Below, piece after piece: positions 11,607 through 57,164 of a stretch of DNA of 64,000 nt (position 1 is its first letter; each line of letters opens with the position of its first letter). The notes beneath the pieces were generated by a model. The model saw nothing but the letters and a program-made list of their open reading frames with translations. It was not told the DNA's origin and did no database searches. The stretch lies in the NCBI GenBank assembly GCA_027487075.1, contig JAIYEG010000010.1:111270-175269 (forward strand). Reading direction: 5' to 3'. The stretch comes from a bacterium (GTDB lineage: Bacteria; Patescibacteriota; Minisyncoccia; Phycocordibacterales; CALRBL01). The position numbers were made by a program, and so were the translations under genes.

Positions 11607-11816
11607 TTATTTCTTTGCAGCTGTCTTTCGAGCCTTGAACTTTTCTACGCGTCCTGCGGTATCGAGTACCTTTTCGTTGCCTGTATATACAGGGTGACAA
11701 TGACTGCAAATTTCGACATTAGTAGCCTGCTTTGTAGAGCCGATCTGATAGATGGCACCACACGCACAGGTAACAGTTGCGTCTTTATGATAAGTAGGAT
11801 GAATGTCTTTTTTCAT
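11607..11816 (-). CDS. rpmE: 50S ribosomal protein L31
   Basis: 69 aa, [20 protein letters not shown]...[10 protein letters not shown]. This is the L31 Cys-x-x-Cys zinc ribbon. Confidence 0.9.
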
Positions 11817-11838
11817 GTCGAGTTAGCCTATCAAACTA

Positions 11839-30597: not shown

Positions 30598-30657
30598 TTC
30601 CACGGATATTTTTTTACTAAAAAATTCCTCGTGTTCGCTCCGTCGAGCCTCACAAGG
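30598..30657. repeat. Inverted-orientation core copy (D) of the repeated structured element
   Basis: Its reverse complement, ccttgtgaggctcgacggagcgaacacgaggaattttttagtaaaaaaatatccgtgg, matches the copy B core at 13261-13318 at about 90 percent. It lies in a 350-bp AT-rich spacer. Confidence 0.5.
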
Positions 30658-41653: not shown

Positions 41654-44600
41654 CTACCACCAAAGTCCTGTAAGACCTGATGCTTTCATCTGCGCGCGAG
41701 TCTTTGGACCGAAGGCGCCTGTTGCTGGAATGATACTATTTTTCTTTTGATATGCTGACAGAGCTGCTGCTGTTTGGGGACCGAAGGTGCCTGTTGCACC
41801 GTTTGGAATAGCAAACCCTTGTGCAATAAGAAGTGCTTGAAGTGCCTTAACATCATCACCTGTCATACCACTGCGAAGATCACGTGTTACTTGTGGAGCA
41901 GTTGATGTTGCGGGAGTTATAGGTGTTGTATTCGCATTCATAATGAACGCTCGTGTCTTAGGGCCGAAATACCCTGAAGCAGGTACGATACCATTTGCTG
42001 CTTGGAACCGCATAAGCGCTTGTCGCGTAAGCTGACCGAAGATTGTTGTCTCATTTCCAACTGAACCTGGTCCTGACGGAGCAATGACGAAGCCTTGTGC
42101 ATTAAGGAATTTTTGTAGCTCTCGCACATCATCACCTGACACACCTAGATCAATATTGCGCGTAAATACTACCGGAGATTGAGATGGTGTAGTTGTGACA
42201 TCTGTACGAGCAGTCACAGCACGTCGACTTCCTGATGTTCTACTCTTTCGAACTTGAGGAGCAGATTCACCACTTACAAAGTCTGGATATCTCCCCACGT
42301 GCATATACCATACAGGAACATTCGCAAAATCCCACTTACCTTGGAACGGACTCTTTGTATCAAGACCGAAGCCTTGGAAGTACTCTGCGTTTGCAACTTT
42401 TGTGGGTTGCACAGCATTAGAATTACCATTGCCTACCTCAAAATTATTAAACCAGAAGTTGTTGGTGATCGTATCACCCGTCTCACCATACCCCACAATA
42501 CCTCCTGTATCATATTCAGGATTAGCAACGATGTCTGAGGTAGAGAATGAATCAGAGATACCCGCATTATCATTGCTTTCACTATATCCTGCAATACCAC
42601 CTGTATTGTAGCCATCATTTATAACTGCGCCCGTGGAATATGCGCGCTCAATAGAGCCCGTATTGTATCCTACAATACCTCCCACATGACTAATTCCTGT
42701 TATGGTACTTGAAGCGTATACATCATGGATCAAACCTGTAGCTCCAAAATTAAATCCTGCAATACCTCCCGCATAATTACGACCTGTTACACTTCCGGTA
42801 AAATATGATGTACGTATCTCTTTACGGTTTTCTCCTACTAGACCTCCCGATGCACCACTCATCGCTTCAACATGTGCCGACGAGTGTGAACCGATAATAG
42901 TACTTCCACCAGACCGAAATGCATCAGCAAATGGTCCTGCGTACGTTCGTGTGTTCCATGTAGTTTGATACTCAATATTCTCAGGAGTAGCAGGATACGG
43001 AGCCATATCACGAGCGTATGTTGTCATACCTCGATATGGCAAGTAGGCAGCAGACTGTCCAAGCTCACCTATATCGCTATACGTTGCATGTTTGTAGAAG
43101 ACATTGTTGAGCAAGATAAAGCTTCGTTCGGTACCTTCGGTAGCAGGAGGAACATACGGGAATTCAATCGACATCTGATCACCGTAGCGCATTACCACGA
43201 AATGGTCATCGGCAGCATTGAGCAATTCTGTAACATTGCCATACTTGGTGAAGTTTCCATATTGATTCACAAATGGAAGTTCTGGAAGCGGTCTCACCTC
43301 ATAATAATCATGGTCATAGAAATGAGTACGATCAATTTTGGTGAATCCATAGTAACCGAGATCAGCACGTTCTGGTGAATGGGTGGTAGCGGTAAATGGA
43401 ATTTGAGGAGATCGATCAACCGCAAAATAATTTGCATTAAACGTATCGAATGCTACTTTTACTTGATACGTATTTGAAAGGAACTTACCTGTAAGATCAA
43501 TAACGCGAAGACGAGGTGTTCCGTCAGAACCAAGCTGACTCTTATTATAAATTTCAACCCACTTTCCTTGTGCGTCTTTTACCTGAATCGAACGTGCTGA
43601 ATTGCCTGGGAATTCTGCAGATGCCGCATAGTCACGCGCACCTCGCATAACAAGTTGGATACTTGATGTTCCCGACAAGTCACCGAAGTCCAGAATAAAT
43701 GACTTACGTAAATTCTTTGGATCATATTGACCTTTCTTATTTGCATAACTCCATTGATCATCGTATGCAGATAATGCCGATGTACAATCGACACCCTTCT
43801 CATCTACGCACGAAATAAGTGGATGAGTCGGTGTATTACTTACACTTCTCAACTGATCAAGTGAAGATACTCTTCCAAGTTGTTCAACGATGGTATAGCC
43901 AGGCTGATGATCAAAGGTCAAAAGCTTAAGCTCATCAAAATACACAATTTCGTTATACTCCTCTCCAATCTTCATGAGATACTTTCCATCTTTTGGTGCC
44001 AGATCTGCGCGATCAATAGAAGCAAGGTCGAGACCATTCAATTCTTTCGGAAGAAGTGAACCAACGTCATTGGTATACACATACTTTGTGCCATTCCATG
44101 TATAGACAAGGGGGCTTGAGTTAGGAAAGCTATTATTTGCAACGTGCACTCCCACAAGTCCTCCTACTCGATATCCTCCTGTCACATTTCCGGTACTATA
44201 TACATTCGTAAGGGTTCCCGATAACCCTCCTGCTACTGCACCGACAGAAGACTCCTCTCCGTAGATACTCACATTCTCTAGACCAAGGTTTTTTACCTCA
44301 GCGCCTGCCGAAATCGTTCTAAAAAGACCTACATAATATCCATCGGGGTCGGACCAATTGATTCCCCGATTGATATACAGGTTGCTAATTTTCTTATTAT
44401 TTCCATCAAAGTGGCCTGTGAAGCTCATGTGGGTAAAGCCTTGATTTACATTATTTCCTACAAACTCAAGGTCTCCAATAGGATTGAATCCTTTATCGTC
44501 AGTCCACTGACTTCCTTCGTTTGCTGGGTTTTCAGGATCTGTCGCCGCACAATCTATGTCGGTCGTAAGAATATAGTATTTATCCAAGAATGATTCATCA

Positions 44601-45454
44601 GAATCGATTGCCTGCAACAACGAACAACTTGAAATCTGATAGGGACTCTCAGCGGTTCCCTCTCCAGAAAATGGCACACTCGCCACAGGCTCAGGAATTT
44701 CGGTGCCTTCTACCGCGACATTATCAACTGCACCATATCGCTCATCAGAAGTACCGAAATATGCACGCACCGCTTCAGCGTTAGTCATATCACTATTTGA
44801 AATATCAGTGATAGTGTGAGTTGTCTTCAGTGGTCCAAGGGTACCACTACTATCTGAAGGATAGATTTCAAAGGTCATATCATACAGGTTATCCGCTCTT
44901 CCGGTGATCTCTAGTCTCATAAACCACCACCCATCAGTCATATCGCCATCAGCCCATGAAAGGTCTTGAAGATTCTGTGCATTACTTACAAAGTTTCCTC
45001 CACCCCCATGAAAAACAATACCGAGACCTCTCACCGCCTTAGGAGTTCCATTCAAAATTCCCCCTGTTCGTCTTGTTGAGAGACCAAGCCCTCCGTATCC
45101 ACCTGAGCCTATATTATTAAAATAACCTTCAATGGTAATAGTTTCATCTATGGCTGGAGCGCTATAGGTAGTGCGTGTTGCCCACACATTTGAAACACCT
45201 GTCACATCGATTGCTGCCGACCCTGCAAGACCTGTACTTGTGGCATAAGTGTAATTAGGACTTACGATAGCTTCACGAAAATCATTACTAAGAAGTTCAG
45301 AGAGATCAGTTCCTTCAAAATCATACAGAGTGTTGGTTTGTGTTGCGTGAGCATGAGAAGTGCCGATGAGCATACTAGGAATCACAAGCATGAGTGCAAG
45401 GACGAGCGACTGTATGTATGTACTAAAAGAACGTGGTAATGACAATGAACGCAT
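41654..45454 (-). CDS. Giant secreted surface protein with GLUG-motif repeats and two C-terminal peptidoglycan-binding (PG_binding_1) domains
   Basis: 1266 aa with a signal peptide. Repeated GG(I/L)(A/V)G...N blocks occur at about 42450-42900. Two copies of (D)LxxGMxGDDVxxLQxxLxAQGF...FGPxTxxAxxxFQ fall in the last 170 aa. Confidence 0.75.
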   Translation of the reverse strand: MRSLSLPRSFSTYIQSLVLALMLVIPSMLIGTSHAHATQTNTLYDFEGTDLSELLSNDFREAIVSPNYTYATSTGLAGSAAIDVTGVSNVWATRTTYSAPAIDETITIEGYFNNIGSGGYGGLGLSTRRTGGILNGTPKAVRGLGIVFHGGGGNFVSNAQNLQDLSWADGDMTDGWWFMRLEITGRADNLYDMTFEIYPSDSSGTLGPLKTTHTITDISNSDMTNAEAVRAYFGTSDERYGAVDNVAVEGTEIPEPVASVPFSGEGTAESPYQISSCSLLQAIDSDESFLDKYYILTTDIDCAATDPENPANEGSQWTDDKGFNPIGDLEFVGNNVNQGFTHMSFTGHFDGNNKKISNLYINRGINWSDPDGYYVGLFRTISAGAEVKNLGLENVSIYGEESSVGAVAGGLSGTLTNVYSTGNVTGGYRVGGLVGVHVANNSFPNSSPLVYTWNGTKYVYTNDVGSLLPKELNGLDLASIDRADLAPKDGKYLMKIGEEYNEIVYFDELKLLTFDHQPGYTIVEQLGRVSSLDQLRSVSNTPTHPLISCVDEKGVDCTSALSAYDDQWSYANKKGQYDPKNLRKSFILDFGDLSGTSSIQLVMRGARDYAASAEFPGNSARSIQVKDAQGKWVEIYNKSQLGSDGTPRLRVIDLTGKFLSNTYQVKVAFDTFNANYFAVDRSPQIPFTATTHSPERADLGYYGFTKIDRTHFYDHDYYEVRPLPELPFVNQYGNFTKYGNVTELLNAADDHFVVMRYGDQMSIEFPYVPPATEGTERSFILLNNVFYKHATYSDIGELGQSAAYLPYRGMTTYARDMAPYPATPENIEYQTTWNTRTYAGPFADAFRSGGSTIIGSHSSAHVEAMSGASGGLVGENRKEIRTSYFTGSVTGRNYAGGIAGFNFGATGLIHDVYASSTITGISHVGGIVGYNTGSIERAYSTGAVINDGYNTGGIAGYSESNDNAGISDSFSTSDIVANPEYDTGGIVGYGETGDTITNNFWFNNFEVGNGNSNAVQPTKVANAEYFQGFGLDTKSPFQGKWDFANVPVWYMHVGRYPDFVSGESAPQVRKSRTSGSRRAVTARTDVTTTPSQSPVVFTRNIDLGVSGDDVRELQKFLNAQGFVIAPSGPGSVGNETTIFGQLTRQALMRFQAANGIVPASGYFGPKTRAFIMNANTTPITPATSTAPQVTRDLRSGMTGDDVKALQALLIAQGFAIPNGATGTFGPQTAAALSAYQKKNSIIPATGAFGPKTRAQMKASGLTGLWW

Positions 45455-45535: not shown

Positions 45536-45586
45536 AAAAACCCCGACCATTTCTGGTCGGGGCGGAACAGCGCGAAGCTGTTCCTA
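45536..45586 (-). terminator. Double-hairpin terminator module, copy 1, beginning at the leuA stop codon
   Basis: Minus-strand read TAG-gaacagcttcgcgcgctgttcc-gccccgaccagaaatggtcgggg-ttttt. The same module, differing only in the loop of the first hairpin, follows the 2OG-oxygenase gene at 48241-48298. Confidence 0.6.
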
Positions 45587-47221
45587 TTTTCTGTTCAGCG
45601 CGGAAAGGACCGCACGGATGGACGCCAATGGAATACTCGTATCAACGCCTGCTCCCCACCGGATCGCTCCGTCTTGAAACTGAAGCTTCACATACGAGAT
45701 TGCTTTCGCATCTGCACCACTACCAAGCGCATGCTCAGCTTGATCGAGGATACTCACACCAGTCTCACATCTGCTATTGAAACCACAAACGAATGCATCG
45801 ATTGGACCATTTCCATTCGATGATATTTCGTGACCTTTATACCGATGCGAGACCACTCCCTTGAAGCGACATTCACGTCCGCCTTCATCAAAATGAACTT
45901 CGCCGAGCTTCCACGGATCTGTCCGCGCGACATACTCGTTGAAGAACATAGCTTTCAGATCTGCTGCAGTCGCTTCTCTACCGAGACGATCTATCAAAGG
46001 ACCCGCAATGGCGCCGAATTCCCTCGCCATGTCTTTCGGCAAACGAATACCACAGCCATGTTCGAGCATGTGCGCGATGCCGCCTTTGCCTGACTGTCCG
46101 TTGATGCGGATCAAGCCGTCGCGCGTGCGACCGATGTCCAGCGGATCAATGATGAGATAGGGAACTTCCCATACCACACCTTCGTTCTGCAAGCCTTTGC
46201 GGATTGCATCCTGATGCGATCCGGAGAACGCCGTGAAGACAAGCTCTCCGCTGTATGGCTGGCGCGGTGGCACGGTCATTCCCGTGCATTCCTCATACAC
46301 ATCACGGATCGCATCAAGGTTTGAAAATTCCAAACCAGGATCGATTCCCTGCGTGTACATGTTCAGTGCCACGATGACGATATCGAGATTTCCGGTCCGC
46401 TCTCCGTTTCCAAAGAGCGTTCCTTCTGCCCGATCTGCTCCTGCAAGCAATGCAAGCTCTGTTGCCGCTACACCCGTCCCGCGATCATTGTGCGTATGCA
46501 CACTGATGATAGCCGAGTCGCGCCGCGTCATATGCGTCGCAAACCATTCGATCTGATCTGCATAGACGTTAGGCATGGCCACCTCTACCGTGCACGGAAG
46601 ATTGAGAATCATTCTATGCTCGGGCGTCGGCTGCCACACATCCATCACTGCTTCGCAGACTTCGAGCGCAAACTCCACTTCAGTCGCCGAAAAGCTTTCG
46701 GGCGAATATTGAAAGGTTACATTCGCACCTTGAAGTGCGGCGACGCTTTCTTTGACCCACTTAGTGCCCCGAACTGCCATCGCAATGATGTCCTGCTTTT
46801 CCAAACCGAAGACGATGCGACGCTGTGCTGGCGAGGTGGAGTTGTAGAGATGCATGATGACGTTCTTCGCGCCGACGAGCGACGCGATAGTCGTCTTGAT
46901 GAGTTCCTCACGTGCTTGGACGAGCACTTGGATCGTGACGTCTTCGGGAATGCGCCCTTCTTCGATCAGCTTCCTCACGAATGCGAATTCTGTCGGAGAT
47001 GCTGCCGGAAATCCGACTTCGATTTCTTTGAAACCGCATGCGACGAGTATGTCGAACATCTTCAATTTCTGTTCGACCGTCATGGGAACTGCCAAGGCTT
47101 GGTTGCCATCGCGAAGATCGACGCTGCACCACAAGGGCGCATGCGTGATGCTCTTGTTCGGCCATGTGCGATGCGGAAGATCGATACGCGGAAATGGCAG
47201 ATACTTATGTTGTGGATTCAT
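45584..47221 (-). CDS. leuA: 2-isopropylmalate synthase (long LeuA2-type with C-terminal regulatory domain)
   Basis: 545 aa with a DRE-TIM metallolyase (DLRDGNQA...HTHNDRGTG) and a LeuA-dimer/regulatory C-terminal domain. GC is visibly higher than in the flanks. Confidence 0.85.
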   Translation of the reverse strand: MNPQHKYLPFPRIDLPHRTWPNKSITHAPLWCSVDLRDGNQALAVPMTVEQKLKMFDILVACGFKEIEVGFPAASPTEFAFVRKLIEEGRIPEDVTIQVLVQAREELIKTTIASLVGAKNVIMHLYNSTSPAQRRIVFGLEKQDIIAMAVRGTKWVKESVAALQGANVTFQYSPESFSATEVEFALEVCEAVMDVWQPTPEHRMILNLPCTVEVAMPNVYADQIEWFATHMTRRDSAIISVHTHNDRGTGVAATELALLAGADRAEGTLFGNGERTGNLDIVIVALNMYTQGIDPGLEFSNLDAIRDVYEECTGMTVPPRQPYSGELVFTAFSGSHQDAIRKGLQNEGVVWEVPYLIIDPLDIGRTRDGLIRINGQSGKGGIAHMLEHGCGIRLPKDMAREFGAIAGPLIDRLGREATAADLKAMFFNEYVARTDPWKLGEVHFDEGGRECRFKGVVSHRYKGHEISSNGNGPIDAFVCGFNSRCETGVSILDQAEHALGSGADAKAISYVKLQFQDGAIRWGAGVDTSIPLASIRAVLSALNRK

Positions 47222-47284
47222 ACGAATATTCCTTTCTAAAGAACAACCGAAGTTTAGTTATGACTTTCTTTTGCGCACTCATGT

Positions 47285-47320
47285 AACGCAAAACCAGCTC
47301 CTTCGGTGAAGAGCTGGCTT
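47285..47320 (-). promoter_or_regulatory. Possible leader terminator/attenuator hairpin in the leuA 5' leader
   Basis: Minus-strand ccagctcttcaccgaaggagctgg-ttttgcg lies about 65 nt upstream of the leuA ATG. A 28-codon ORF (47347-47433, MPSQAHNLRTLLNLRTTGGDFACAHTIE) precedes it. Confidence 0.3.
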
Positions 47321-47563
47321 GTATCTATCTATCGTTTTTTCTTCGACTACTCAATAGTATGGGCACAAGCAAAATCTCCACCGGTTGTTCGGAGGTTGAG
47401 CAGGGTTCGAAGATTGTGTGCTTGTGAAGGCATAGGAAAAGAGTAGCGGATTGAGGGTGGGGTGTCAAATGAAAATTATATCTCAAACTAATTTATATAA
47501 AAGAACACCCTGCTCCAGACGAATCTGAAGCAGGGTGCGGGGCCAAGGATCTGTCCGATTGGC

Positions 47564-47992
47564 CTAAACTTTTTTGCGAACGGCCAGGAAACAGCAGAGG
47601 GAAGACCTATCGCAGCCACACCAGAGGAGGCCGAGATAGCGCATCAAGCCATCCCCGCTGAGATACGGGACGCGGAAAAAACCACGGATCTTGCTGACGG
47701 AGCCGAGCGCGAGGATCGGGAACTTATGCTGCTCGTCAGGGTGCTTTGCACCGAAGGCGAGCAGATGCTCCGTTTTCGCCACTTCCCAGCTAGCCTCCTC
47801 GATCAAACGCCCAGCATCCTTCAAAGAGACACGGGGTTCAAAGTGGAAAAGATGGGCTTCCAGCTCTTCCACGCCTTTCCCTTCGATCTGCAAACGCTTG
47901 ACCATGGGATCGTCGATACTCAAGTTGTTGAGATCAGCGGCGATCATCTGTTCGAGCGTCTTCGAGTAATCCACCGAGAGCGTAAAATTCAT
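47564..47992 (-). CDS. Hypothetical protein (GC-rich island)
   Basis: 142-aa ORF with its own downstream hairpin terminator (47506-47537). A 120-aa antisense ORF overlaps it, so the strand choice rests on the start context and the terminator. Confidence 0.4.
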   Translation of the reverse strand: MNFTLSVDYSKTLEQMIAADLNNLSIDDPMVKRLQIEGKGVEELEAHLFHFEPRVSLKDAGRLIEEASWEVAKTEHLLAFGAKHPDEQHKFPILALGSVSKIRGFFRVPYLSGDGLMRYLGLLWCGCDRSSLCCFLAVRKKV

Positions 47993-48240
47993 AGTCGGTC
48001 TTTCAATTTGGAATTGTTCGTTAGAACTATGTCCGTTTATTTGATGCTAGAGGGCTACCTTATCGCCATAGCTAGGAAATGCCCATAATTGAGCAGTTTT
48101 TAGCTATGGCGATATTGCAAATAGGTGTAAAAGAACTGTGGTGTATTATAGCATAATATATACCATATTGTCAATATCGTATATATTATACAAATCATAC
48201 GGCATGGATTATTTATTGTTCGACAGAAGGAGACAATAAA

Positions 48241-48298
48241 AAAACCCCGACCATTTCTGGTCGGGGCGAAACAGCAATGCTGTTCCCAGCTGTTCCTA
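48241..48298 (-). terminator. Double-hairpin terminator module, copy 2, beginning at the 2OG-oxygenase stop codon
   Basis: Minus-strand read TAG-gaacagctgggaacagcattgctgtttc-gccccgaccagaaatggtcgggg-tttttt. Confidence 0.6.
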
Positions 48299-49129
48299 CT
48301 TAAACATCTGCACGAACTCGCCATGCGGCATATCGTAGTTGAAACCGGGTTTCTTCTCCTGCAAGCGACCGTGCCCTGCTTTGTCATACTTTGGAGTACG
48401 ACTCAACTGCACAAAGCATACCGCAGAATATCTTCCATGCCCTGCGGTTTCTGGAGTTGCCACCACCCGATGACACAGCGCACGAAGCGTGCCTTCTGAC
48501 CGAAGCTGTAATTGCATTGACGGAATGATGACCGTCTCACCTTCCGACACCGGCATGTCGATCCACTGACGATCGTCGTAGGTGAGACACTGCAACCCTG
48601 GTGCACTCTCGAACAAGTGAAGAGTGAAGCCACTTTGATCGGTGTGCGCGGTTGCAGTCTCTTCACCGATTTTGCGATCACCGAAGTAGTGAATGAATCG
48701 AACAAAGAACGCTACCTCACTCTCTTCCACCTCTTTGGCGAAACCTTTGATACCAAACTCAGATTCGACCTGAGCAGCAAACTGCACGATGGTCGGCTTC
48801 ATGAGTCCGACGAGCGTACTTGCTTGTTGCACGAACCGACGAGCAACATCAGAGCTCACCGAGCCAAGATGCTGTTCGACCCACTGTTCCCCTGCGAGCG
48901 TGATGTCAAAGTTTTCTTTTCGGTCAGCACTGGGTCCTTCACCAAGTTTGAGTTCGTATCCAACACCATCAGCACCATTGCTGTATGGCAAGCCTCGCTT
49001 CACCTCTTCAGGCAGAGCGCAGAATTTGTGCCACAGACTGATTGTATCCACGACTGCTTGTCGCAAATCGGGAGGATATGAAATTGAAACAAAACCATGA
49101 GTTCCTAGTTGTGTGATTGATGTGTTCAT
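48296..49129 (-). CDS. 2-oxoglutarate/Fe(II)-dependent oxygenase (IPNS/flavanone-hydroxylase-like)
   Basis: 277 aa with an HTDQSGFTLH...H HxD...H facial triad, an RxS-like motif, and a DIOX_N-like N-terminus. Confidence 0.7.
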   Translation of the reverse strand: MNTSITQLGTHGFVSISYPPDLRQAVVDTISLWHKFCALPEEVKRGLPYSNGADGVGYELKLGEGPSADRKENFDITLAGEQWVEQHLGSVSSDVARRFVQQASTLVGLMKPTIVQFAAQVESEFGIKGFAKEVEESEVAFFVRFIHYFGDRKIGEETATAHTDQSGFTLHLFESAPGLQCLTYDDRQWIDMPVSEGETVIIPSMQLQLRSEGTLRALCHRVVATPETAGHGRYSAVCFVQLSRTPKYDKAGHGRLQEKKPGFNYDMPHGEFVQMFK

Positions 49130-49188
49130 AATCTATGAACAGTCTATAGATAGACCCACAAAAAGATAGCGAGGACTCCCTCGGTAGA

Positions 49189-49908
49189 CTATTCCTCGAT
49201 CGTATCGCTCTGTATTTCTTCCTTAAAGAAAAATGGCATGGTATCTATGGTGCCATCTTTAATTGCGGTGAGTACCGGCACCAAACTTCTGATCGAATCA
49301 TACTCAGCAGACTCATGCTGTATCGCTTGATCGATAGGAACCCAGATATGGTGTCCGAACGATGAATCAATAAGAAGCTCACCCGATGATGAGTCAGTAT
49401 AGGCAATGGGAAAGAGTACATCAGAAAAGAGTTCACCTTGTTTGTAGAGAATGCGGCGCTCCATAGCCACAAGTTTGAAGGTGGCATCAAGTCCGGTTTC
49501 TTGTTTGAGTTTACGGGTTGCTGCAGGTTCGATGAGTTCACCTTTGAGCACAACTCCACCCATGACACCAACTTTTCCATACGATGGGTTTGAGTGTCGG
49601 ACCTGATTGAGAATTTCTATCGCACCATTATTGATGCGCGAGACGATAGTGATGACATTCACCTTAAAGAGACTCGTGATGGCGTCGTTAGTGGGATAGG
49701 GATCAGCAACGTGCTTGATTCCCTTTTGTGACAAGGCATAACCCTCATCTGTCTTGGTGACGAAGTCTTTTTTGACGAGGTGTTGGAGGTGGTAGTTGAA
49801 GAGGTCGTTCGGGACTTTGGGAGGTTGGAGCTCGCTATAGCGAAGAGACGCTGCGTTTTTGAGCTTGGAGAGGATATGGTTTTGGATGGGAGACAGGTTG
49901 AGGGACAT
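49189..49908 (-). CDS. NUDIX hydrolase with N-terminal winged-HTH domain
   Basis: 239 aa with N-terminal HTH-like helices and a Nudix box, GVVLKGELIEPAATRKLKQETGL. Confidence 0.6.
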   Translation of the reverse strand: MSLNLSPIQNHILSKLKNAASLRYSELQPPKVPNDLFNYHLQHLVKKDFVTKTDEGYALSQKGIKHVADPYPTNDAITSLFKVNVITIVSRINNGAIEILNQVRHSNPSYGKVGVMGGVVLKGELIEPAATRKLKQETGLDATFKLVAMERRILYKQGELFSDVLFPIAYTDSSSGELLIDSSFGHHIWVPIDQAIQHESAEYDSIRSLVPVLTAIKDGTIDTMPFFFKEEIQSDTIEE

Positions 49909-49953
49909 GAGGTGATACTACTCAGTCTGGGAGAAAATTCAACTTGTAACAAC

Positions 49954-50403
49954 CTACACCGTCATTGTCGGCACCACCTCATCACTCTGATACTGTGCAT
50001 CACCGAAAGCGAGGAGAGGATAGAAGATGACGGGCAAAAAGATAAGTCCAAGTGTGTATCCTACTCCCTTTCCAAAGACACGTGAGAGTTCAACATAGAC
50101 GAGAAGAAGTATAATAAGGTTGACGAATGGAATAAACAGGAGGAATATCCACCATATTGGCTTTTTGATGATTTGGAGGAGAACGACGGTGTTATAGATA
50201 GGAATGAGAGATGCCCAGCCTGGCTGGTGTGCCTTGGTGAAGATACGCCATAGTGATGCCACCATGAGCACGATAACAAATACTACAAAGATGAAGATAG
50301 GTGCGTAAACAGTAACGTCGGGACACGGGACCTCTTGACCGTTGACGCGACACAGTGCTGCCGCGAGGTTAGATGGTGATGAAAATAATGAAAAAATGTT
50401 CAT
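49954..50403 (-). CDS. Hypothetical membrane protein
   Basis: 149 aa with 3-4 TM helices and a PGWASLIPIYN motif. Confidence 0.45.
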   Translation of the reverse strand: MNIFSLFSSPSNLAAALCRVNGQEVPCPDVTVYAPIFIFVVFVIVLMVASLWRIFTKAHQPGWASLIPIYNTVVLLQIIKKPIWWIFLLFIPFVNLIILLLVYVELSRVFGKGVGYTLGLIFLPVIFYPLLAFGDAQYQSDEVVPTMTV

Positions 50404-50452
50404 GTGATTGTTGTTTGGTTGGTATGAATAAATTATATCATTTGAAATGAAA

Positions 50453-50806
50453 TTACATCACCTCTATCTGATACACATCCGTCGCAGGTTCTTCATACGG
50501 GTGCGCTTCGCGAATTGCTTTTAACACTGTTTGAAGTTTGTCTTCCGAGCAGACGGTTTCAATACGATCTTCTTGAACTTCTTCCAATGTTCCAACCGTA
50601 CCAATGGTTGGATGAGCTCCTTCGAGGGGCTTAAACCTACCTACTCCTTTAAGGGTGAATGTGCAGTGTGAATAATTACCTATCTTTCCAGCACCAGCGT
50701 TTCCGATTGCATCACGAAGCACATCAGCATGTGTTTCGGGAACATAAATGACAATTTTGTATTGTTTCTGCATGAGGTAATTATACACATAAGCGCCAAT
50801 TGACAT
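50453..50806 (-). CDS. Small PII-like / Nif3-insert-like domain protein
   Basis: The conserved part begins MSIGAYVYNYLMQKQYKIVIYVPETHADVLRDAIGNAGAGKIGNYSHCTF...EAHPYEEPATDVYQIE. This matches the YqfO/NIF3 PII-like insert domain (COG3323-like). The ORF's first 64 codons look non-coding. Confidence 0.45.
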   Translation of the reverse strand: MSIGAYVYNYLMQKQYKIVIYVPETHADVLRDAIGNAGAGKIGNYSHCTFTLKGVGRFKPLEGAHPTIGTVGTLEEVQEDRIETVCSEDKLQTVLKAIREAHPYEEPATDVYQIEVM

Positions 50807-51090
50807 ATCGACACTATATGGTTGTATAAGCTGTGAATGAACAAGCCACTCAACGAACTTTCCCGGAGCACGTCGTTTGTCCCTGTACAAAGAAGTGATA
50901 TGCGGAGCTTCCATGGAGCCGAGCACTGTGGCCCCTACCTTCTTCTCATCCAAACAGTTTCTGTTCCCGACAATGGGGATTGGAACTGCGTGTGCCAAAC
51001 GACGGGAACTCTTTGCTTTTTACCACCACTTCATCGCGTCACTCCTGTAAAGGTGAAGGTAACCCTTGTGATGTGACGCATGGGTTCAAT

Positions 51091-51120
51091 CCGCACACCT
51101 CTCAGTGTGCGGATTTTTAT
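51091..51120 (+). terminator. Plus-strand rho-independent terminator with no annotated plus-strand gene upstream
   Basis: ccgcacacctctcagtgtgcgg-atttttat. The T-run is on the plus strand only. Confidence 0.45.
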
Positions 51121-51126
51121 GTATGC

Positions 51127-52785
51127 TTAATTTAAATCAATACCGTACCTTTTTACTCTCTGCCTGTTTAAATCAGATTCTTGACCAATTTTAATAAGAG
51201 CATTTTCAAAAGTTGTAGTAATTTTTTTCATTTCATCACTTGCGTTAGCATATTTTCCAAATTGAAGCGCCTGACTAATAATTGTTCGTAACTCTCTTCC
51301 TTCGGAGTTTTTAATTATGCTATAGTAATTTTCAACCGTCACTTCAGAAAGCCTCTTTAAATCATCCTCGTTCCATCCTCCATTTTTAGCAATATCTATT
51401 AATAAACTTTTTGGATCCCTATTATCTTTAAAACTCAAGAACTTATTATTGAATGCCTTAATAAGATTCGGATCACTTAACTCACTCAATAATAAACTTT
51501 GTGTATTATAAAAATTTTTTGATTCCTTTCTTTCATTAATGTAAAAATCAATCATTTCTTCTGCTTCCTCATCTTTATCGAATTTTCTAAAAAGACGAAC
51601 TGTTGCATCTAAATCATTAGGAGTAACTGCCTGCACACCCTTTTTTAGAGACTCTTTAATGTTAGTTAAAATTTCTTCTTTTTCACCTAGAAATGATTCA
51701 TCAAACTTATTCCATGCCTCACCAAAAGTATTACCATAATTTTCAATACTAATACTCTTATCGAATTCATCAGCTTTATCCTTAATTGCCTTGGTATCAA
51801 AATAGCCACACTTAATTGCCTCCAAGATAAGATTATCAACTTCATCAAAATGAGTAAAATTAATTGAACTTAACTGCAACCTCCATCTTTTTTCCACTTC
51901 ATTTTCTTTTGTCTTGCTATCTCTTAAAAAATTATAATGGTTAAAATTCTTAATATAATTGAGGTCAGGTGCAACATTCGGTTGATAAAAAGACCAACCC
52001 AACAAAACGACAGAAGGAAGCCAACCTACGAAAACCTTTTGACTATTATCTTTTAATATAATTTCTAGTTTATCTAAAATTCTTTCAATCTTTTTAATAA
52101 TCCTAATATTTTTGATGTTTAATGATATACAAATACTTTTAAAATCTTTACTAAAAGATTTAGTATCATTGACTGCGATTTGTATAGCTTCAATAGTTGT
52201 TGGTTCAAATTTAATATCAATATCAAAAACTTTTTCTAGTTGCAGATCAAAATCTTTTCTATTATGCTCAGTAAGCATTTCATAATTTAATAACACCACA
52301 ACCTTGCATTTTCTCTGTTCCTTAAGAAACAAGGCCAACCCAAATATATCATTCATGGTTAGATCAGCTCCACAACGTTCTAAATCGTCAATACAAATAA
52401 TTTGATTTGAGACCAAACTAAAAGTAGGAAATATTGATTTATAATCTTTAATTTTTGGTATTTCACCTACAAATTTGTAGACTTTTCTCCAGCTATTCCA
52501 TTTTCCAAAAGAAAAATATGAAAGAATGTAATCAATGTAATTAATTTTAAGTTTTTTAGAATTTTCAAAAATTGAAAATTTTACTTCTTCTAGAGAATTA
52601 ACTCCAAATAAGCTAACGTACGAATACTTTCTCAAAGCAACATTATTTTTTTGAGTAGCTAAATTTAAATAGTGATTCCAAGTATAAGTTTTTCCAACTC
52701 CCCACTCACCAGTAACACACATGATTTCTGGTTCAGAGGTTGAGATAAATCTTTCAATTTCTTCTGCTGCTAGTTTAACTGACAT
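51127..52785 (-). CDS. KAP-family P-loop NTPase
   Basis: 552 aa with Walker A GEWGVGKTYTW and the KAP-type Walker B ICIDDLERC. The gene is strongly AT-rich, about 30 percent GC against about 45 percent in the flanks. Confidence 0.8.
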   Translation of the reverse strand: MSVKLAAEEIERFISTSEPEIMCVTGEWGVGKTYTWNHYLNLATQKNNVALRKYSYVSLFGVNSLEEVKFSIFENSKKLKINYIDYILSYFSFGKWNSWRKVYKFVGEIPKIKDYKSIFPTFSLVSNQIICIDDLERCGADLTMNDIFGLALFLKEQRKCKVVVLLNYEMLTEHNRKDFDLQLEKVFDIDIKFEPTTIEAIQIAVNDTKSFSKDFKSICISLNIKNIRIIKKIERILDKLEIILKDNSQKVFVGWLPSVVLLGWSFYQPNVAPDLNYIKNFNHYNFLRDSKTKENEVEKRWRLQLSSINFTHFDEVDNLILEAIKCGYFDTKAIKDKADEFDKSISIENYGNTFGEAWNKFDESFLGEKEEILTNIKESLKKGVQAVTPNDLDATVRLFRKFDKDEEAEEMIDFYINERKESKNFYNTQSLLLSELSDPNLIKAFNNKFLSFKDNRDPKSLLIDIAKNGGWNEDDLKRLSEVTVENYYSIIKNSEGRELRTIISQALQFGKYANASDEMKKITTTFENALIKIGQESDLNRQRVKRYGIDLN

Positions 52786-52950
52786 AGTTTTAAATTAACT
52801 TGAATTCAAGGCTCGGTCACGGATAATTTTTTGCTAAAAATTTCCGCGACCCCGCCTCGCGCCGTCGCGCTCCGGCTTTCGAGTCCGCGTTACGCTTTCC
52901 ACAAAAGCTACGCCGTCTCTCAGTCTCGCTCACCCTTCGGGTATCGCTTG

Positions 52951-53021
52951 CTGCGAGACTAGGACTCGAACCTAGATAAACGGTGCCAGAAACCGTTGTC
53001 CTACCATTAGACGATCTCGCA
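52951..53021 (-). tRNA. tRNA-Gln(CUG)
   Basis: TGCGAGA-TC-GTCT-AATGGTA-GGAC-A-ACGGT-TTCTGGC-ACCGT-TTATC-CTAGG-TTCGAGT-CCTAG-TCTCGCA-G. U1-A72 and G73 are typical of Gln. The 74-aa ORF 52817..53041 across it is spurious. Confidence 0.85.
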
Positions 53022-53037
53022 ATGTTCTCCATTTGTA

Positions 53038-54138
53038 TCACAAAAACGTGATAACGACAATTTCGGCTTTGGTGCCGATACGAAACGGCGGACCCCAGGT
53101 TCCTGCCCCGCTTGTGGTGATCTGGGTCATGGTGCCGTAGGCTTTCATGCCGTAGTCGTAGCCTTGGTAAATCTTTTTGGTGATGTAGCTCAAGGGATAG
53201 AGCTGGGCGTGGTGGGTGTGACCTGAGACGGCGAGGTCGATACCGGCGGCTTCAGGGACTTCGAGGTGGAGGGGGACGTGTTTGATGAGGATGGTGGGAG
53301 TGGTGCTTGCGGTGGTGAGTGAGGTGAGAACGGAGGTGTAGTCTATGGCATCTTCGGTGGATTGGTAGTCGACACCGATGATGTCGACACCTTGTACCGT
53401 GCGCTTTTCATTGTTGAGGACGGTGACACCTGCATTGCGCAATCCTTCGAAAAAACCGATGGGCGAGCCGTGGAGTTCTTCGTGGTTACCTGAGGCGAAG
53501 TAGACACCCCACGGTGCGGTGATGGTGGCGAGGGGTGCGACACTTGCCTTCTCATCGATCTTCACACCGTCGTACACGTCTCCGGCAAGGAGGACGATGT
53601 CGGCACGTTCGGTGTTGGTGAGGTCGGCGATCTTCTGTGAGAAAGCGGTGCTTCTGATGTTGCCAAGATGCATGTCGGCGACGAGCACGGCTTTCTTTCC
53701 CTTCCACGCTTCAGGTGTGTTTGGGAGGCGCACGTCGTACCTCGTGACCTGCACATCGAATGCGCGGTATGCGCTGTATATGGTGAGGACTCCGGCAATC
53801 ACGACGAATGCGAGACCGATGCGAGAGAGGTATGGTGCAAGTGGTGGGATGAGCGCGATGAGTGCATACAAGATCGAAGCGACAAAGAGAAAATACAAAA
53901 GTCCCATCCAATAGGCAGAAATATTGTACAGCACTTTGATCACGATGTTGCTGTATTGCACAGAAACGATGGTTAACACCAAGAAACTGAGCGCAAGGAC
54001 GACAAACACCGTGCGAAACACGGTGAGGTGCGGCATGAGTGCGGTGGCAAACACCGCAAGAAGAAACTTATACACCGCAAGATGTACGAGTGAGATGATA
54101 CCGAGTACGATGCTGAAGAAAAACGCGAAGGCAATCAT
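53038..54138 (-). CDS. Membrane-anchored metallophosphoesterase (calcineurin-like)
   Basis: 366 aa with N-terminal TM helices and GDxxD / GNHE / GHTH motifs (DMHLG, GDVYDG, SGNHE, SGHTHH). Confidence 0.8.
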   Translation of the reverse strand: MIAFAFFFSIVLGIISLVHLAVYKFLLAVFATALMPHLTVFRTVFVVLALSFLVLTIVSVQYSNIVIKVLYNISAYWMGLLYFLFVASILYALIALIPPLAPYLSRIGLAFVVIAGVLTIYSAYRAFDVQVTRYDVRLPNTPEAWKGKKAVLVADMHLGNIRSTAFSQKIADLTNTERADIVLLAGDVYDGVKIDEKASVAPLATITAPWGVYFASGNHEELHGSPIGFFEGLRNAGVTVLNNEKRTVQGVDIIGVDYQSTEDAIDYTSVLTSLTTASTTPTILIKHVPLHLEVPEAAGIDLAVSGHTHHAQLYPLSYITKKIYQGYDYGMKAYGTMTQITTSGAGTWGPPFRIGTKAEIVVITFL

Positions 54139-54141
54139 GCC

Positions 54142-55068
54142 CTACACCTTAATATATTTCTTGACGGCAATCCAGCTTGAGATGATACCGAGGATGATAC
54201 CTGCTGCAATAATGATGGCAGTAATTTGCATGAAGTTGTCGAGATAGTAGGTGAAGATATTCAAACCAGTACCAAGGTCATACGTATACGGACCGAGCCA
54301 ATACGTGATGGGATAAAAGATAGCGAGGGTAATGAGCGACGAAATGAAGCCGTAGATGATACCGATGATAATGAAGGGGCCTTTGATATAGCGGGCTGAT
54401 GCACCTACGAGGCGCATGACGGCAATCTCATCCTTTGAGGTATAAATAGCGAGACGCACGGTATTGAAGGTGATGAGGATAGAGATGAGTGCGAAGAAGA
54501 TAGTGATGATGAGGCCGAGCTTTTCCGAAGAATCGATCATGCGACTCAAGGTGTCGATAGCTTCTTTGTTTTCGATGTAGCTGATCTTGTCGACGATATT
54601 GCGCGTCTTATCTCCTGAGACATTTTGAGTGGTCACAAAATCTGCAATTGCTTGGTATTGTGACGGATCGACAGCGCGGATGTTAAGACTTGGCTCCAGA
54701 GGATTCCCTCCTACTTCATCGAGCGCTTCGGTGATGAGCGGGTTGTCAGCATGGCGTGCGCGGAAGTTTTCGAGGGCCTCTGCTGCGGTGGTGTAGGTCA
54801 CTGAGGCTACTTCAGGACGCGCTTCGAGTGCTTGCTTGAGTGCTTGCGCTTGATCGTCGGTCGTGGTGGTTTCGAGATAGACATTGATGTCGACTTTCTC
54901 ACGAATTCCCTGCAAGGTTGATTGAAGGAGTGCACCAACAAACAAAATAGAGAGCACCACCGACAACGTCACTGTCATGATGAGTGTTGATGCAACAGAC
55001 ACTGATCCATTGCGAACAAATCCTTTTGCTCCAGCTTTTATGACACGTTTAATTTTGGTCCAGATCAT
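54142..55068 (-). CDS. ftsX: Cell division permease FtsX
   Basis: 308 aa with one N-terminal TM helix, a periplasmic domain and 3 C-terminal TM helices. It lies downstream of ftsE. Confidence 0.85.
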   Translation of the reverse strand: MIWTKIKRVIKAGAKGFVRNGSVSVASTLIMTVTLSVVLSILFVGALLQSTLQGIREKVDINVYLETTTTDDQAQALKQALEARPEVASVTYTTAAEALENFRARHADNPLITEALDEVGGNPLEPSLNIRAVDPSQYQAIADFVTTQNVSGDKTRNIVDKISYIENKEAIDTLSRMIDSSEKLGLIITIFFALISILITFNTVRLAIYTSKDEIAVMRLVGASARYIKGPFIIIGIIYGFISSLITLAIFYPITYWLGPYTYDLGTGLNIFTYYLDNFMQITAIIIAAGIILGIISSWIAVKKYIKV

Positions 55069-55078
55069 ATATGTTTAG

Positions 55079-55759
55079 TTATAGCATGTATTTGCCTGAT
55101 GTATCATCACGCACAATCTTACCATTTTCCATGGTCACCACACGACGACCGAGCGAATCGATGACACCTTTGTTGTGGGTAGTGAGGATGACGGTGGTGC
55201 CGAGGTCGTTAATTTTTTTGAGGATTTGAATGATTTCGTAGGTGTTCACAGGATCGAGGTTTCCGGTCGGCTCGTCAGCGATGATGATGTCAGGCTGATT
55301 GACAATGGCACGTGCAATAGCCACGCGCTGCTTCTCTCCCCCTGAAAGCTGATGAGGAAAATTCCAAATCTTATTGCCGAGATCCACGAGCTCGAGCACA
55401 TGCGGCACATCCACCGCAATCTCCTCTTCGCTACGACCTGCTGCCTCCATAGCAAATGCAATATTCTCATACACGTTCTTATGAGCAAGGAGGCGGAAGT
55501 CTTGGAAAACGGTTCCGATACGACGGCGATAGTTGTTGAGGTCGGTTTTCTTGAGGGCGTGGATATCGGTCTCCTCGAAGTACACTGCACCGTAGGTCGG
55601 CTTCTCTTCTCCGAGGATCATCTTGATGAGTGTGGTCTTACCTGCTCCCGACTGACCTACGATAGACACGAACTCCTTCGGGTCGACACGAAAGGTGATG
55701 TTATCGAGCGCAGCAGTGTGATCGCCGTAGATTTTTGAAACGTTGTCGAAGTAAATCAT
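55079..55759 (-). CDS. ftsE: Cell division ATP-binding protein FtsE
   Basis: It starts MIYFDNVSKIYG at 55759 and has GQSGAGKTT, LSGGEKQR and IADEPTGNLD. The longer 273-aa ORF adds a non-conserved N-terminus. Confidence 0.9.
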   Translation of the reverse strand: MIYFDNVSKIYGDHTAALDNITFRVDPKEFVSIVGQSGAGKTTLIKMILGEEKPTYGAVYFEETDIHALKKTDLNNYRRRIGTVFQDFRLLAHKNVYENIAFAMEAAGRSEEEIAVDVPHVLELVDLGNKIWNFPHQLSGGEKQRVAIARAIVNQPDIIIADEPTGNLDPVNTYEIIQILKKINDLGTTVILTTHNKGVIDSLGRRVVTMENGKIVRDDTSGKYML

Positions 55760-55810
55760 GCGAGATTCATTATACCAGCTGACTTGAGAGGCGCAATCAT
55801 GGAAGAGGCA

Positions 55811-55849
55811 TAAGAAAAGCGCCCGACCACGATGGTCGGGCGCTTTCGA
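55811..55849. terminator. Bidirectional terminator
   Basis: aagaaaagcgcccgaccacgatggtcgggcgctttcgag. Confidence 0.55.
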
Positions 55850-55859
55850 GCCAAGGCAC

Positions 55860-56687
55860 TCAGGCCGCGGCGAGCTTTTTGGAGCAGCACGGATATTCAA
55901 GCCGCTGCCGTACTTTCCACAGCACCACGCCGAGCAGTCCGCCGAACAGGCTTGCGCCGATCATCCACGCGGCGTCCTCAGCTTTGGTGGCCATTGACGG
56001 ACGCAGAAGGTAATCGGCCGAGAAGGCGATCAATGCTCCGACGCCAGCCGCCACGCTTTGCGTGGTAGCAACGTAGAAAAAGAGCGTGATGAGCGCGTCG
56101 AGAATAATGACAATCCACAACAGTACACACACATTCAGAGCGATAATGATGAGTGTCCAATCTCGTGCCATGACCAATGCTTCACGTACACCATGAGCGG
56201 TTACTAGCTTCCCTTCCCTATCACGAAGAGTGATTTTTCTTTCTGGCTTATCACCCGGACCTGAGTCATCAGGAAGCATCCTACCGATCATTTTACACAG
56301 CGGAAACTTGAACGATCCTTTGTCTAAGCACATGCACACTGCGAGCATTGCAGCAATGAAGCCTAGCACCAAAGTGATCGGCGTCGCAAAGTGTGCTGTC
56401 CAAGGCGAGACGAAGTACGTGACGCCGATATGCATCGGCATGATTCCAATGGTGAGCACCATCAGAGAGAAGACTGCCCATATCACCCCTTTGATGGTGT
56501 TTCCGAACACCTCCCAGAATGCTTCGACAGTCTTCTTCGGGTCGCAGAGTGCGATCGCGAATACCACGCCGAGCAAGCCGACGTACCAGGTATCGAAACG
56601 GCGCGTGAGCGCCAAGGACATGAATGTGCCGATTGCGGCGCAGGCAAAAAGCCTGAAGAGTTTTGAAGGAACCGAATTTGGATTCAT
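55860..56687 (-). CDS. Hypothetical polytopic membrane protein (GC-rich gene)
   Basis: About 275 aa from MNPNSVPSKLF, with 7-8 TM helices. Its GC is visibly higher than the neighbours. No recognisable family. Confidence 0.45.
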   Translation of the reverse strand: MNPNSVPSKLFRLFACAAIGTFMSLALTRRFDTWYVGLLGVVFAIALCDPKKTVEAFWEVFGNTIKGVIWAVFSLMVLTIGIMPMHIGVTYFVSPWTAHFATPITLVLGFIAAMLAVCMCLDKGSFKFPLCKMIGRMLPDDSGPGDKPERKITLRDREGKLVTAHGVREALVMARDWTLIIIALNVCVLLWIVIILDALITLFFYVATTQSVAAGVGALIAFSADYLLRPSMATKAEDAAWMIGASLFGGLLGVVLWKVRQRLEYPCCSKKLAAA

Positions 56688-56777
56688 AAACAAGCATGAC
56701 GTAGATCGGGCACCATGCACGACGATACGTTCTGCTAGCAGATTACAACGTTTACATCGTAAGTCAAAGCGGTTTAG

Positions 56778-57164
56778 TTATGATGCGAGAATACCCACGA
56801 GAAGCTTATCGAGTACCACCTGCGTCTGTGGATTGGCGTGTCCTTCTTCGTTATTGAAAAGCGCACTTCCATCTTTGCCACATGCTTTCACGATTGCCTG
56901 ACCACCTGGGTGAATCGGGATGAATGGGGTGAGATTGTAGACCTTGCCGTTAATTGCTGACCAACAATCTGATGCCGTGTTGTGAGGAGCGATGTCTGCA
57001 AGCGTAAGCTTCGTTGAAAGAGCAGTCTCAGTTGCACGTACGGACATATCAGGAATCGCGGCGATCTTTGCCTGAATATTCTTGAGCATGTAATAGTAGA
57101 CACCTCCTCCGATGAGGGTGAGCACAAGAATAACGAGGGCAATAATTTTGATGGTTTTGTTCAT
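56778..57164 (-). CDS. Membrane-anchored cytochrome b5-like heme-binding domain protein
   Basis: 128 aa with an N-terminal TM helix and the b5 signature HPGG (PFIPIHPGGQAI). Confidence 0.55.
   Translation of the reverse strand: MNKTIKIIALVILVLTLIGGGVYYYMLKNIQAKIAAIPDMSVRATETALSTKLTLADIAPHNTASDCWSAINGKVYNLTPFIPIHPGGQAIVKACGKDGSALFNNEEGHANPQTQVVLDKLLVGILAS

Follow-up and report, generated by a model that had tools for sequence, protein, structure and literature searches.

A KAP-type NTPase gene of foreign composition beside tRNA-Gln in a Patescibacteria chromosome, a candidate stand-alone anti-phage protein of the phrog_4740 family

The subject of this analysis is a stretch of 64,000 nucleotides (nt) from a Patescibacteria genome (GenBank assembly GCA_027487075.1, contig JAIYEG010000010.1, positions 111,270 to 175,269 of the forward strand), hereafter called the window, and within it a single gene, an open reading frame (ORF) of 552 amino acids (aa) that encodes a KAP-like P-loop nucleoside triphosphatase (NTPase) and lies beside tRNA-Gln(CUG). 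All coordinates given below are positions in the window, unless another contig is named. The evidence leaves us in little doubt that the gene is a horizontally acquired KAP-type NTPase of the family phrog_4740. With moderate confidence, we further favour the view that it is recently acquired single-gene cargo at a variable chromosomal slot, and that its product would be a stand-alone anti-phage (anti-mobile-element) switch NTPase of that family.

The composition of the gene sets it apart from the DNA around it. Its guanine-plus-cytosine content (GC) of 0.287 and its GC at third codon positions (GC3) of 0.212 are the lowest among the 55 ORFs of at least 100 aa in the window (mean GC 0.457, standard deviation 0.040), and the block that contains it has about 29% GC, as compared to an average of about 45% for the whole 64 kb. 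When GC was followed in 80-nt windows, it switched abruptly at about 51116 and at about 52844, where it fell from 0.54-0.65 to about 0.3. No other part of the 64 kb deviates as strongly in tetranucleotide usage as the 1.7-kb windows lying over the NTPase gene (0.58 vs. 0.264 ± 0.051). The synonymous codon-usage distance of the gene is high, yet it ranks only 4 of 53, and several GC-rich genes in its vicinity (by GC3) deviate in the opposite direction. The first-pass annotation, made by a model from the sequence alone, had proposed that GC and codon usage would both prove atypical; this is borne out for GC and tetranucleotides, and only in part for codon usage. The block itself, from about 51116 to 52820-52844, consists of one gene with 35-59 nt upstream and 11 nt downstream of it, and contains no further ORF of at least 60 aa and no integrase. 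Its sharp borders, together with the GC-rich spacer of 105 nt, agree with the earlier description of an island of about 30% GC separated from tRNA-Gln(CUG) by a GC-rich hairpin segment. The NTPase gene starts 164 nt beyond the 3' end of tRNA-Gln(CUG), on the same strand, and is part of a co-directional gene array adjoining core genes (tRNA-Gln, ftsEX and prfB). The gene is compositionally foreign, and its horizontal acquisition is well supported.

The same conclusion is reached by comparing the locus with a JGI contig (L016), found through a large protein database, which is the one usable relative on which the slot comparison rests. This contig is a genuine relative, as shown by the identities obtained with tblastn for RF2 (87%), FtsE (91%), FtsX (81%), the phosphoesterase (55%) and the 106-aa gene on the left flank (78%). 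The order FtsE-FtsX-phosphoesterase-tRNA-Gln is kept in it, and the same tRNA also follows the phosphoesterase in a Logan contig (L015). DNA similarity between the window and L016 extends no further than the 3' end of the tRNA at one border and the start codon of the 106-aa gene at the other. Between these two points L016 holds seven unrelated genes over 4.7 kb, and the NTPase is absent. Because the flanks are kept while the content of the slot differs, the NTPase is to be seen as the occupant of a variable slot with no syntenic orthologue, and foreign composition and absence from the L016 slot together uphold the horizontal acquisition that the first-pass annotation had suggested. Relatives of the flanking metallophosphoesterase were found only in Patescibacteria, that is, the candidate phyla radiation (CPR). 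As for the left flank, the alignment with L016 places the start of the 106-aa gene, described as PII-like in the first-pass annotation, at about 50773 (MQKQYKIVIY...), which leaves a non-coding spacer of 353 nt, hairpin included, between this gene and the NTPase gene. The version of the same gene that begins with TTG and counts 181 aa is probably not real, and the 153-aa version (50453-50914) had no Pfam match at E ≤ 0.001. A second variable slot was observed between prfB and ftsE (55860-57164 in the window, 4316-5431 in L016), containing a Cyt-b5 protein and a 275-aa membrane protein in the window and two unrelated proteins of about 170 aa in L016.

The route by which the gene arrived is a separate matter. 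An empty site, in which tRNA-Gln would be directly followed by the 106-aa gene, had been anticipated and was not found: all relatives obtained from GTDB genomes and JGI metagenomes had 31-42% identity and no synteny, and the slot of L016 is occupied by its own seven genes. Two Logan contigs of one sequencing run (L015 and L026, SRR30952591), the second of which includes the 3' part of the NTPase gene, are 100% identical to the window and for this reason uninformative on polymorphism. The 3' end of the tRNA had also been proposed as the integration site. Neither a repeat search nor a Smith-Waterman alignment of the tRNA plus spacer found the 3' end of tRNA-Gln repeated at the left border more closely than by chance (score 18-20 vs. 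a shuffled null of 19.1 ± 2.3). Since integrase, tRNA 3' repeat and empty site are all missing, integration at the tRNA is read from composition, and site-specific recombination at the tRNA as the insertion route is not demonstrated. A 15-nt inverted repeat at the two ends of the NTPase ORF was also considered and discarded, as it is AT-rich and falls inside the null distribution.

Relatives of the protein were searched in 1.84 billion cluster representatives (clusters at 50% identity). At E ≤ 0.001 the search yielded 3290 relatives, of which 998 reach E ≤ 1e-30; leaving aside some truncated entries, the best 150 matches listed are almost all of full length, at about 530-630 aa. The closest sequence found is 47% identical, the closest homologues lie in contexts of 31-35% GC, and the nearest homologues show a scattered occurrence, in Proteobacteria, Cyanobacteria, plasmids and phages. 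The only full-length family assignment is that to phrog_4740 of PHROGs v4, annotated as 'unknown function' (E 7.2e-59, aa 7-549 vs. profile positions 7-625 of 627). In Pfam, the window protein matches KAP_NTPase (PF07693) with 22.4 bits against a cut-off of 20, and over aa 13-65 only. The same profile is matched by 55 of 60 relatives (best E 1.2e-9), in some of them over profile positions 18-234 or 19-282 of 293. The assignment to the KAP family made in the first-pass annotation is hence marginal for the window protein and solid for its family. Of the features typical of KAP proteins, the alpha-helical C-terminal extension is present, whereas transmembrane helices are absent (the maximum 19-residue Kyte-Doolittle mean of the window protein is 1.14). 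Among PADLOC families, PDC-S49 is the sole match at E ≤ 1 (E 1.6e-14), and it is limited to model positions 29-352 of 624. Each of the 60 family members likewise has a match to this model (best E 3e-30, 60-104 bits, up to about 420 of the 624 positions covered), none of them at seed level, and the phrog_4740 family looks like a sister of PDC-S49 and not a member of it. NCBIfam contains no model for the window protein. No STAND family was matched at or above the curated Pfam cut-off, and sub-threshold matches to NB-ARC or nSTAND appeared in a few relatives only. A sequence search for a relative of solved structure returned only spurious matches to DNA ligase 4 (E about 0.1). In the literature we found no mention of PDC-S49, phrog_4740, WP_001518830.1 or WP_023147874.1. 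The phage-borne family, widespread and found for the most part on prophages and plasmids, is already catalogued but uncharacterised, and the locus fits a known pattern well.

The nucleotide-binding motifs reported in the first-pass annotation are read directly in the 552-aa translation: Walker A, GEWGVGKT, spans aa 26-33 (nt 52687-52710) and Walker B, IICIDDLERC, spans aa 129-138 (QIICIDDLER, nt 52375-52404). They conform to the patterns GxxGxGK[ST] and, for KAP-type Walker B, hhhhDDLxR, and both are invariant in the family. A sensor-1-like asparagine (N167) is found at the end of strand 4 and a lid arginine at R228. An alignment of 60 members, window protein included, is conserved end to end. 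Its invariant positions comprise G26, W28, G29, G31, K32 and T33 in Walker A, C131, D133, D134 and R137 in the Walker B region, then N167, K185, D188, P195 and the lid residue R228 and, in the C-terminal half, G327, W358, W471, A529 and N540. The NTPase is apparently catalytically complete. The AlphaFold2 model (predicted local distance difference test, pLDDT, 87.7; predicted template modelling score, pTM, 0.70) consists of a five-stranded core of the additional strand, catalytic glutamate (ASCE) type with a helical lid (aa 1-245); the rest of the chain (aa 246-552) is all-helical. Prediction is poor only for aa 81-120, a variable and soluble helical insert that separates Walker A from Walker B. 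The N-terminal domain is predicted to be an AAA+ domain similar to those of ORC/Cdc6 and STAND proteins. The combination of core and C-terminal winged helix that characterises AAA+ initiators of the ORC/Cdc6 kind is not found: no winged-helix or DNA-binding domain was detected in the C-terminal half of the predicted structure. No enzyme fold was detected there either. The C-terminal half had been described as long, helical and of low complexity; it is indeed helical, but because it is conserved across the family it is a real conserved domain and not a low-complexity tail, and it is modelled with a pLDDT of 91.6.

The genomic context of the relatives is that of mobile and defence-related DNA. 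One relative adjoins a DpnII restriction-modification system and an Old/AriA/GajA-like nuclease, and another an RHS toxin and a methyltransferase. A third (P0016, in the contigs L003/L004 from ENA GROS21 metagenomes, 4029-13077) lies beside tRNA-Thr(GGT), in an integrase-bounded island whose other genes include SocA/Panacea, Imm_superinfect and two for tyrosine integrases, and in L004 the unit from integrase to NTPase is tandemly duplicated. Relatives occur in 127 plasmid records. On an Agrobacterium plasmid the relative adjoins an SpbK-like TIR protein, on a Nostoc plasmid DruE and a reverse transcriptase, and on a Legionella plasmid HicAB, RelE and a recombinase; the family occurs on rhizobial plasmids as well, and on Klebsiella and Escherichia coli plasmids of about 110 kb, of which the E. 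coli example examined has a tail-fibre gene and is phage-plasmid-like. Many prophages also carry a relative, as do Burkholderia temperate phages, where it adjoins RelE and an HNH gene, and family members are present on at least 91 IMG/VR contigs. The family genes are AT-rich almost everywhere, often below their flanks (0.28 vs. 0.41 in Nostoc; 0.305 vs. 0.375 in the contig L020).

Neighbours were clustered for 89 loci on viral contigs, which form 54 groups at 80% identity. No partner gene is conserved among these 54 dereplicated groups, and the recurrent neighbours are only structural and replication genes of P2. The absence of a recurrent partner, and the position of the NTPase alone in the low-GC block, correspond to what defines PDC-S49 as a single-gene candidate. 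In 16-17 of the 54 groups (about 30%) the P2 replication endonuclease gene gpA lies upstream and the portal gene gpQ and the terminase gene lie downstream, and the RefSeq annotation of two E. coli chromosomes likewise places a family member between gpA and gpQ. This interval is the old/tin hotspot of P2, and experiments have established it as an anti-phage reservoir (PMC9122126). The E. coli proteins from it (WP_001518830.1 and WP_023147874.1) have 33-34% identity to the window protein over the full length. A relative is detectable at the DNA level in 131 of 5426 complete E. coli genomes (about 2%). In the P2-like prophages of the two E. coli chromosomes, the copy between gpA and gpQ lies beside either an LA2681-family HEPN protein or an 883-aa protein with an HsdR N-terminal domain (L107, 4989-8665; L108, 4999-9593).

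The defence function that we favour is drawn from this context and from three distant relatives, namely EF_KAP, PifA and Reve, the last being a single-gene defence from an E. coli P4-satellite hotspot (PMC13586616; bioRxiv 10.64898/2026.02.27.708500). By analogy with these systems, the phrog_4740 family is probably anti-phage. The first-pass annotation had already proposed a stand-alone anti-phage NTPase. The lack of a conserved partner, the defence and mobile neighbours and the P2 hotspot speak for this proposal, while the only PADLOC match covers a part of PDC-S49. The same annotation had suggested an abortive-infection type, to which nothing at this locus points; EF_KAP itself is reported as not acting by abortive infection (PMC13552941). 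How such a protein might work can be sketched from STAND/Avs proteins, EF_KAP, Reve and PifA, in the form of a specific switch model that we consider possible but doubtful. The C-terminal solenoid would act as the sensor and recognise a phage component. Binding and hydrolysis of ATP by the N-terminal domain (K32/T33, D133/D134, N167 and R228) would then drive oligomerisation or remodelling, which would block phage replication. Because no effector fold is present, the assembled NTPase is proposed as its own effector: speculatively, the oligomer might sequester or remodel a target, or load onto phage DNA or the replisome. We tentatively extend this to the family as a whole, which could represent a distinct, unnamed class of single-protein anti-phage NTPase devoid of a dedicated effector domain, in which a solenoid-triggered ORC-like core would block phages, for instance if it assembled on phage DNA or replication proteins, and whose phage-derived copies would be functional immunity genes even in Patescibacteria. 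Ultra-small episymbiotic Patescibacteria are thought to be poor in defence systems.

A number of observations weigh against an anti-phage function. The best structural matches of the predicted fold are replication initiators (ORC/Cdc6-like), and in SSU5-like E. coli phage-plasmids the relative stands beside an AAA ATPase, a DnaB-like helicase and a primase, so that a role in replication is possible. The window protein contains no recognisable effector domain, which makes the blocking or killing step speculative. On the side of the known systems, no tested member of phrog_4740 was found in the literature. Reve is homologous only in the NTPase, in the lid and where the helical region begins, and the C-terminal halves do not align; the homology to PDC-S49, an untested single-gene candidate, covers the same three parts only. 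PifA is reached only by a profile-profile alignment of 44% probability and is missed by the family profile at E ≤ 10. Moreover, the copies on viral contigs are not enriched at contig ends. The promoter scan called nothing of the sigma-70 type on the minus strand in the 5' leader of the NTPase gene, and the leader shows no obvious Shine-Dalgarno sequence.

Some of these same observations would be expected if the protein served the mobile elements that carry it, as an AAA+ protein resembling a replication initiator or loader, as a partition factor or as a target-selection factor, the window copy being a stranded prophage or plasmid remnant. This is the main rival reading, and we regard it as unlikely. 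The replication genes adjoining it in E. coli phage-plasmids would suit such a role, but in the window and at many chromosomal and plasmid loci the gene occurs without replication or transposition genes and with unrelated neighbours. In P2-like prophages it does follow the replication endonuclease gene, yet the slot after gpA is the accessory old/tin hotspot and lies outside the replication module (PMC9122126). That the family is a PHROG of unknown function with an ORC-like fold also leaves room for a service to the carrier; against this, the C-terminal half has no detected winged-helix or DNA-binding domain, and ORC-like top matches are reported for the validated defence protein Reve too.

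The gene might also be functionless cargo, recently arrived, silent or unadapted, and on its way to loss, which we judge improbable. Its composition is unameliorated (29% vs. about 45% GC) and no promoter or ribosome-binding site is recognisable between the tRNA terminator and the ATG, in a group whose genomes are small and streamlined. Nevertheless, 552 codons have stayed intact in AT-rich DNA, where stops arise easily, the protein keeps the residue at every column that is invariant in the 60-sequence alignment, and Logan contigs that were assembled independently, from one sequencing run, contain the identical sequence. The gene is presumed to be expressed in its Patescibacteria host. A native housekeeping NTPase of the lineage, merely AT-rich, is highly improbable: the co-directional array beside tRNA-Gln, ftsEX and prfB would fit it, whereas the gene is absent from the syntenic slot of L016, it is the lowest-GC gene and top k-mer outlier of the window, and its nearest homologues are only 47% identical and come from the scattered hosts and elements listed above. 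The reading of an acquired stand-alone anti-phage NTPase thus remains the one that we prefer. The features of the locus are collected in Table 1.

Table 1. Features of the NTPase locus, with positions in the window, strand and basis of each call.
Feature	Position	Strand	Basis or remark
Conserved 106-aa gene, left flank	50453..50773	-	tblastn, 78% identity to L016 12939-13268
Non-coding host-like spacer, about 50% GC	50774..51087	.	Between hairpin and conserved 106-aa gene
Perfect 11-bp hairpin	51088..51115	.	Terminator scan; begins 11 nt past NTPase stop codon, at left GC switch
KAP-like NTPase ORF, 552 aa	51127..52785	-	ORF calling; member of phrog_4740, distant kin of PADLOC PDC-S49 and Reve
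C-terminal all-helical solenoid (aa 246-552)	51130..52050	-	Conserved in family, without recognisable enzyme fold
N-terminal AAA+/STAND-like P-loop NTPase with helical lid (aa 1-245)	52051..52785	-	
AT-rich 5' leader of NTPase gene	52786..52820	-	Sequence, promoter scan
25-nt near-palindromic motif GGAAATTTTTAGCAAAAAATTATCC	52821..52845	-	Exactly at GC switch, 35 nt upstream of NTPase ATG
Copies of the 25-nt motif	11549-11573; 30604-30628; 52821-52845	+; -; -	All intergenic
Terminator-like hairpin with T-run	52861-52845	-	Terminator scan; end of GC-rich spacer
GC-rich host-like spacer, 105 nt	52845..52949	-	GC 0.54-0.65; between tRNA-Gln and low-GC block
tRNA-Gln(CUG)	52950..53021	-	ARAGORN; Rfam RF00005, 61 bits; 3' end (52950) toward NTPase gene
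Metallophosphoesterase, conserved right flank	53038..54138	-	Pfam PF00149 recorded for identical protein P0121; FtsX and FtsE upstream
Genes in the slot of L016			158-aa hypothetical, PL14 lyase, Ser hydrolase, His phosphatase, 85-aa ORF, methyltransferase, def

The two borders of the block were inspected for signals and remnants. On the tRNA side, the terminator-like hairpin is probably the terminator of tRNA-Gln. The GC-rich spacer shows no unusual structure (fold z = -0.31) and is not conserved in L016. At the GC switch lies the 25-nt motif (GGAAnTTTTTAGyAAAAAAnTATCC), of which the window contains three copies with at most 3 mismatches, against 0 expected from 100 shuffles; one of the other copies lies between rpmE (L31) and the next gene. 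The motif may be a host element, namely a terminator tail, a promoter or an operator. On the opposite side, the hairpin has a T-tail on the plus strand only, and an A-tract on the strand of the gene itself, so that the orphan plus-strand terminator noted in the first-pass annotation is confirmed. It may be a 3' hairpin of the NTPase gene without a U-tract, or a barrier to antisense transcription. As an observation on its own, a plus-strand terminator-like hairpin stands here without any plus-strand gene, and it is overlapped by an Rfam match to the small RNA Hrs13 (51024-51119, plus strand; 24 bits vs. a gathering score of 52, E 0.007), which is probably due to chance. A structured RNA in either spacer was rejected, in view of the fold z of -0.31 in the GC-rich spacer and of Rfam matches that were only sub-threshold. 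Likewise, a pseudogene remnant was rejected, as tblastn with L016 proteins gave no matches and detected no protein remnant in either spacer. An integron attC site was rejected as a reading of the 28-nt hairpin, which is a perfect short stem, far below attC length and without extrahelical bases; attC sites are much longer than 28 nt and possess such bases.

Other parts of the window deserve a brief description. The region 45584-57000 is compositionally mosaic, with several genes at GC3 0.55-0.69 vs. 0.32-0.50 elsewhere in the window; in codon usage, no gene deviates more than the phosphoesterase. At 45584-47221 a full-length LeuA (2-isopropylmalate synthase) is encoded, with GC 0.53; LeuA is unusual for a Patescibacteria genome. 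A milder low-GC gene pair (26764-27925, minus strand; GC 0.38, GC3 0.26-0.28), coding for an AAA_33 kinase-like protein and a His_Phos_1 phosphatase, may be acquired. The segment 62001-63000, upstream of a TMEM175-like channel gene, has GC 0.33-0.38 and no ORF of at least 100 aa. Two giant proteins are encoded on the minus strand, one of 1783 aa (1888-7239) with pectate-lyase-like, GDSL lipase and Peptidase_S74 (endosialidase chaperone, tailspike-type) domains, and one of 1266 aa (41654-45454) with GLUG and peptidoglycan-binding domains.

The locus is a good but fairly ordinary horizontally acquired gene of defence type, a reasonable candidate for a test and not a surprising one. Should the defence function be true, a large family (about 1000 clusters at 50% identity) would gain a role and join the KAP-type single-gene defences PifA, EF_KAP and Reve, and it would offer a clean case of an effector-less NTPase for asking how such proteins stop phages. 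As far as the host is concerned, it would mean that defence cargo of phage type entered a Patescibacteria genome at a variable slot beside a tRNA.

Among known systems, those built on STAND proteins and on membrane-bound KAP proteins differ in architecture. Avs/AVAST proteins have an N-terminal effector domain, whereas in the window protein Walker A begins at aa 26 with no domain N-terminal to the P-loop, and the tripartite STAND arrangement of effector, NTPase and repeat sensor is not found. Tmn (YobI family) has transmembrane helices and forms a decameric membrane complex that exports Mg2+ (PMC13001434), while the window protein is without transmembrane helices. A closer parallel is PifA of plasmid F, the founder of the KAP family and a transmembrane-less KAP protein that excludes phage T7 (PMC13001434). 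The likeness consists in a soluble KAP-type NTPase, a Walker B of the form DDL(D/E)R with the following LxK strand, and carriage on mobile elements; in the profile-profile alignment (hhalign, 44% probability) IICIDDLER...LEKV of the family is aligned with IVVMDDLDR...LQKI of PifA. PifA differs in being 741 aa long, in scoring 148 bits on PF07693 vs. 22 for the window protein, and in matching the PADLOC models PifA, QatA and PDC-S20 rather than PDC-S49. In Enterococcus faecalis, KAP-domain proteins fused to C-terminal regions protect the cell, and both Walker B and the C-terminal region are required (PMC13552941).

The other members of phrog_4740 (including WP_001518830.1, WP_023147874.1 and the SSU5-like phage-plasmid protein WP_114569656.1) share with the window protein the motifs, the length and the two-domain architecture. 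What distinguishes the window copy from them is its location on a Patescibacteria chromosome with no phage genes around, and an identity of at most 47% to any sequence found.

Among experimentally validated proteins the nearest relative is Reve, with homology in the NTPase domain only: against the family profile it scores 44.5 bits (positions 11-315), and in BLASTP 145-245 residues align at about 26% identity. A phenotype has been measured for Reve, whereas the window protein is a sequence-based candidate. The construct pFD425, which by its position in the pFD421-426 series is that of Reve (UnknownSys7), lowers the plating of Drexlerviridae to an efficiency of plating of 2.5e-6 in E. coli (PMC13586616; bioRxiv 10.64898/2026.02.27.708500). 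Its authors report PF07693 and PF13401 (AAA_22) in the protein, and the human ORC ATPase module as the top fold match (PMC13586616; bioRxiv 10.64898/2026.02.27.708500). The Reve sequence (Dataset E1) has 586 aa, no transmembrane segment, and the motifs GEWGVGKTF, IIDDLER and NIRII. In all these respects the window protein resembles it, being likewise the product of a single gene, of similar length (552 aa) and without a transmembrane segment, and sharing with Reve the Walker A GEWGVGKT(F/Y), the Walker B I(I/C)IDDLER, the lid motif NIRII and the combined KAP and ORC-like signature.

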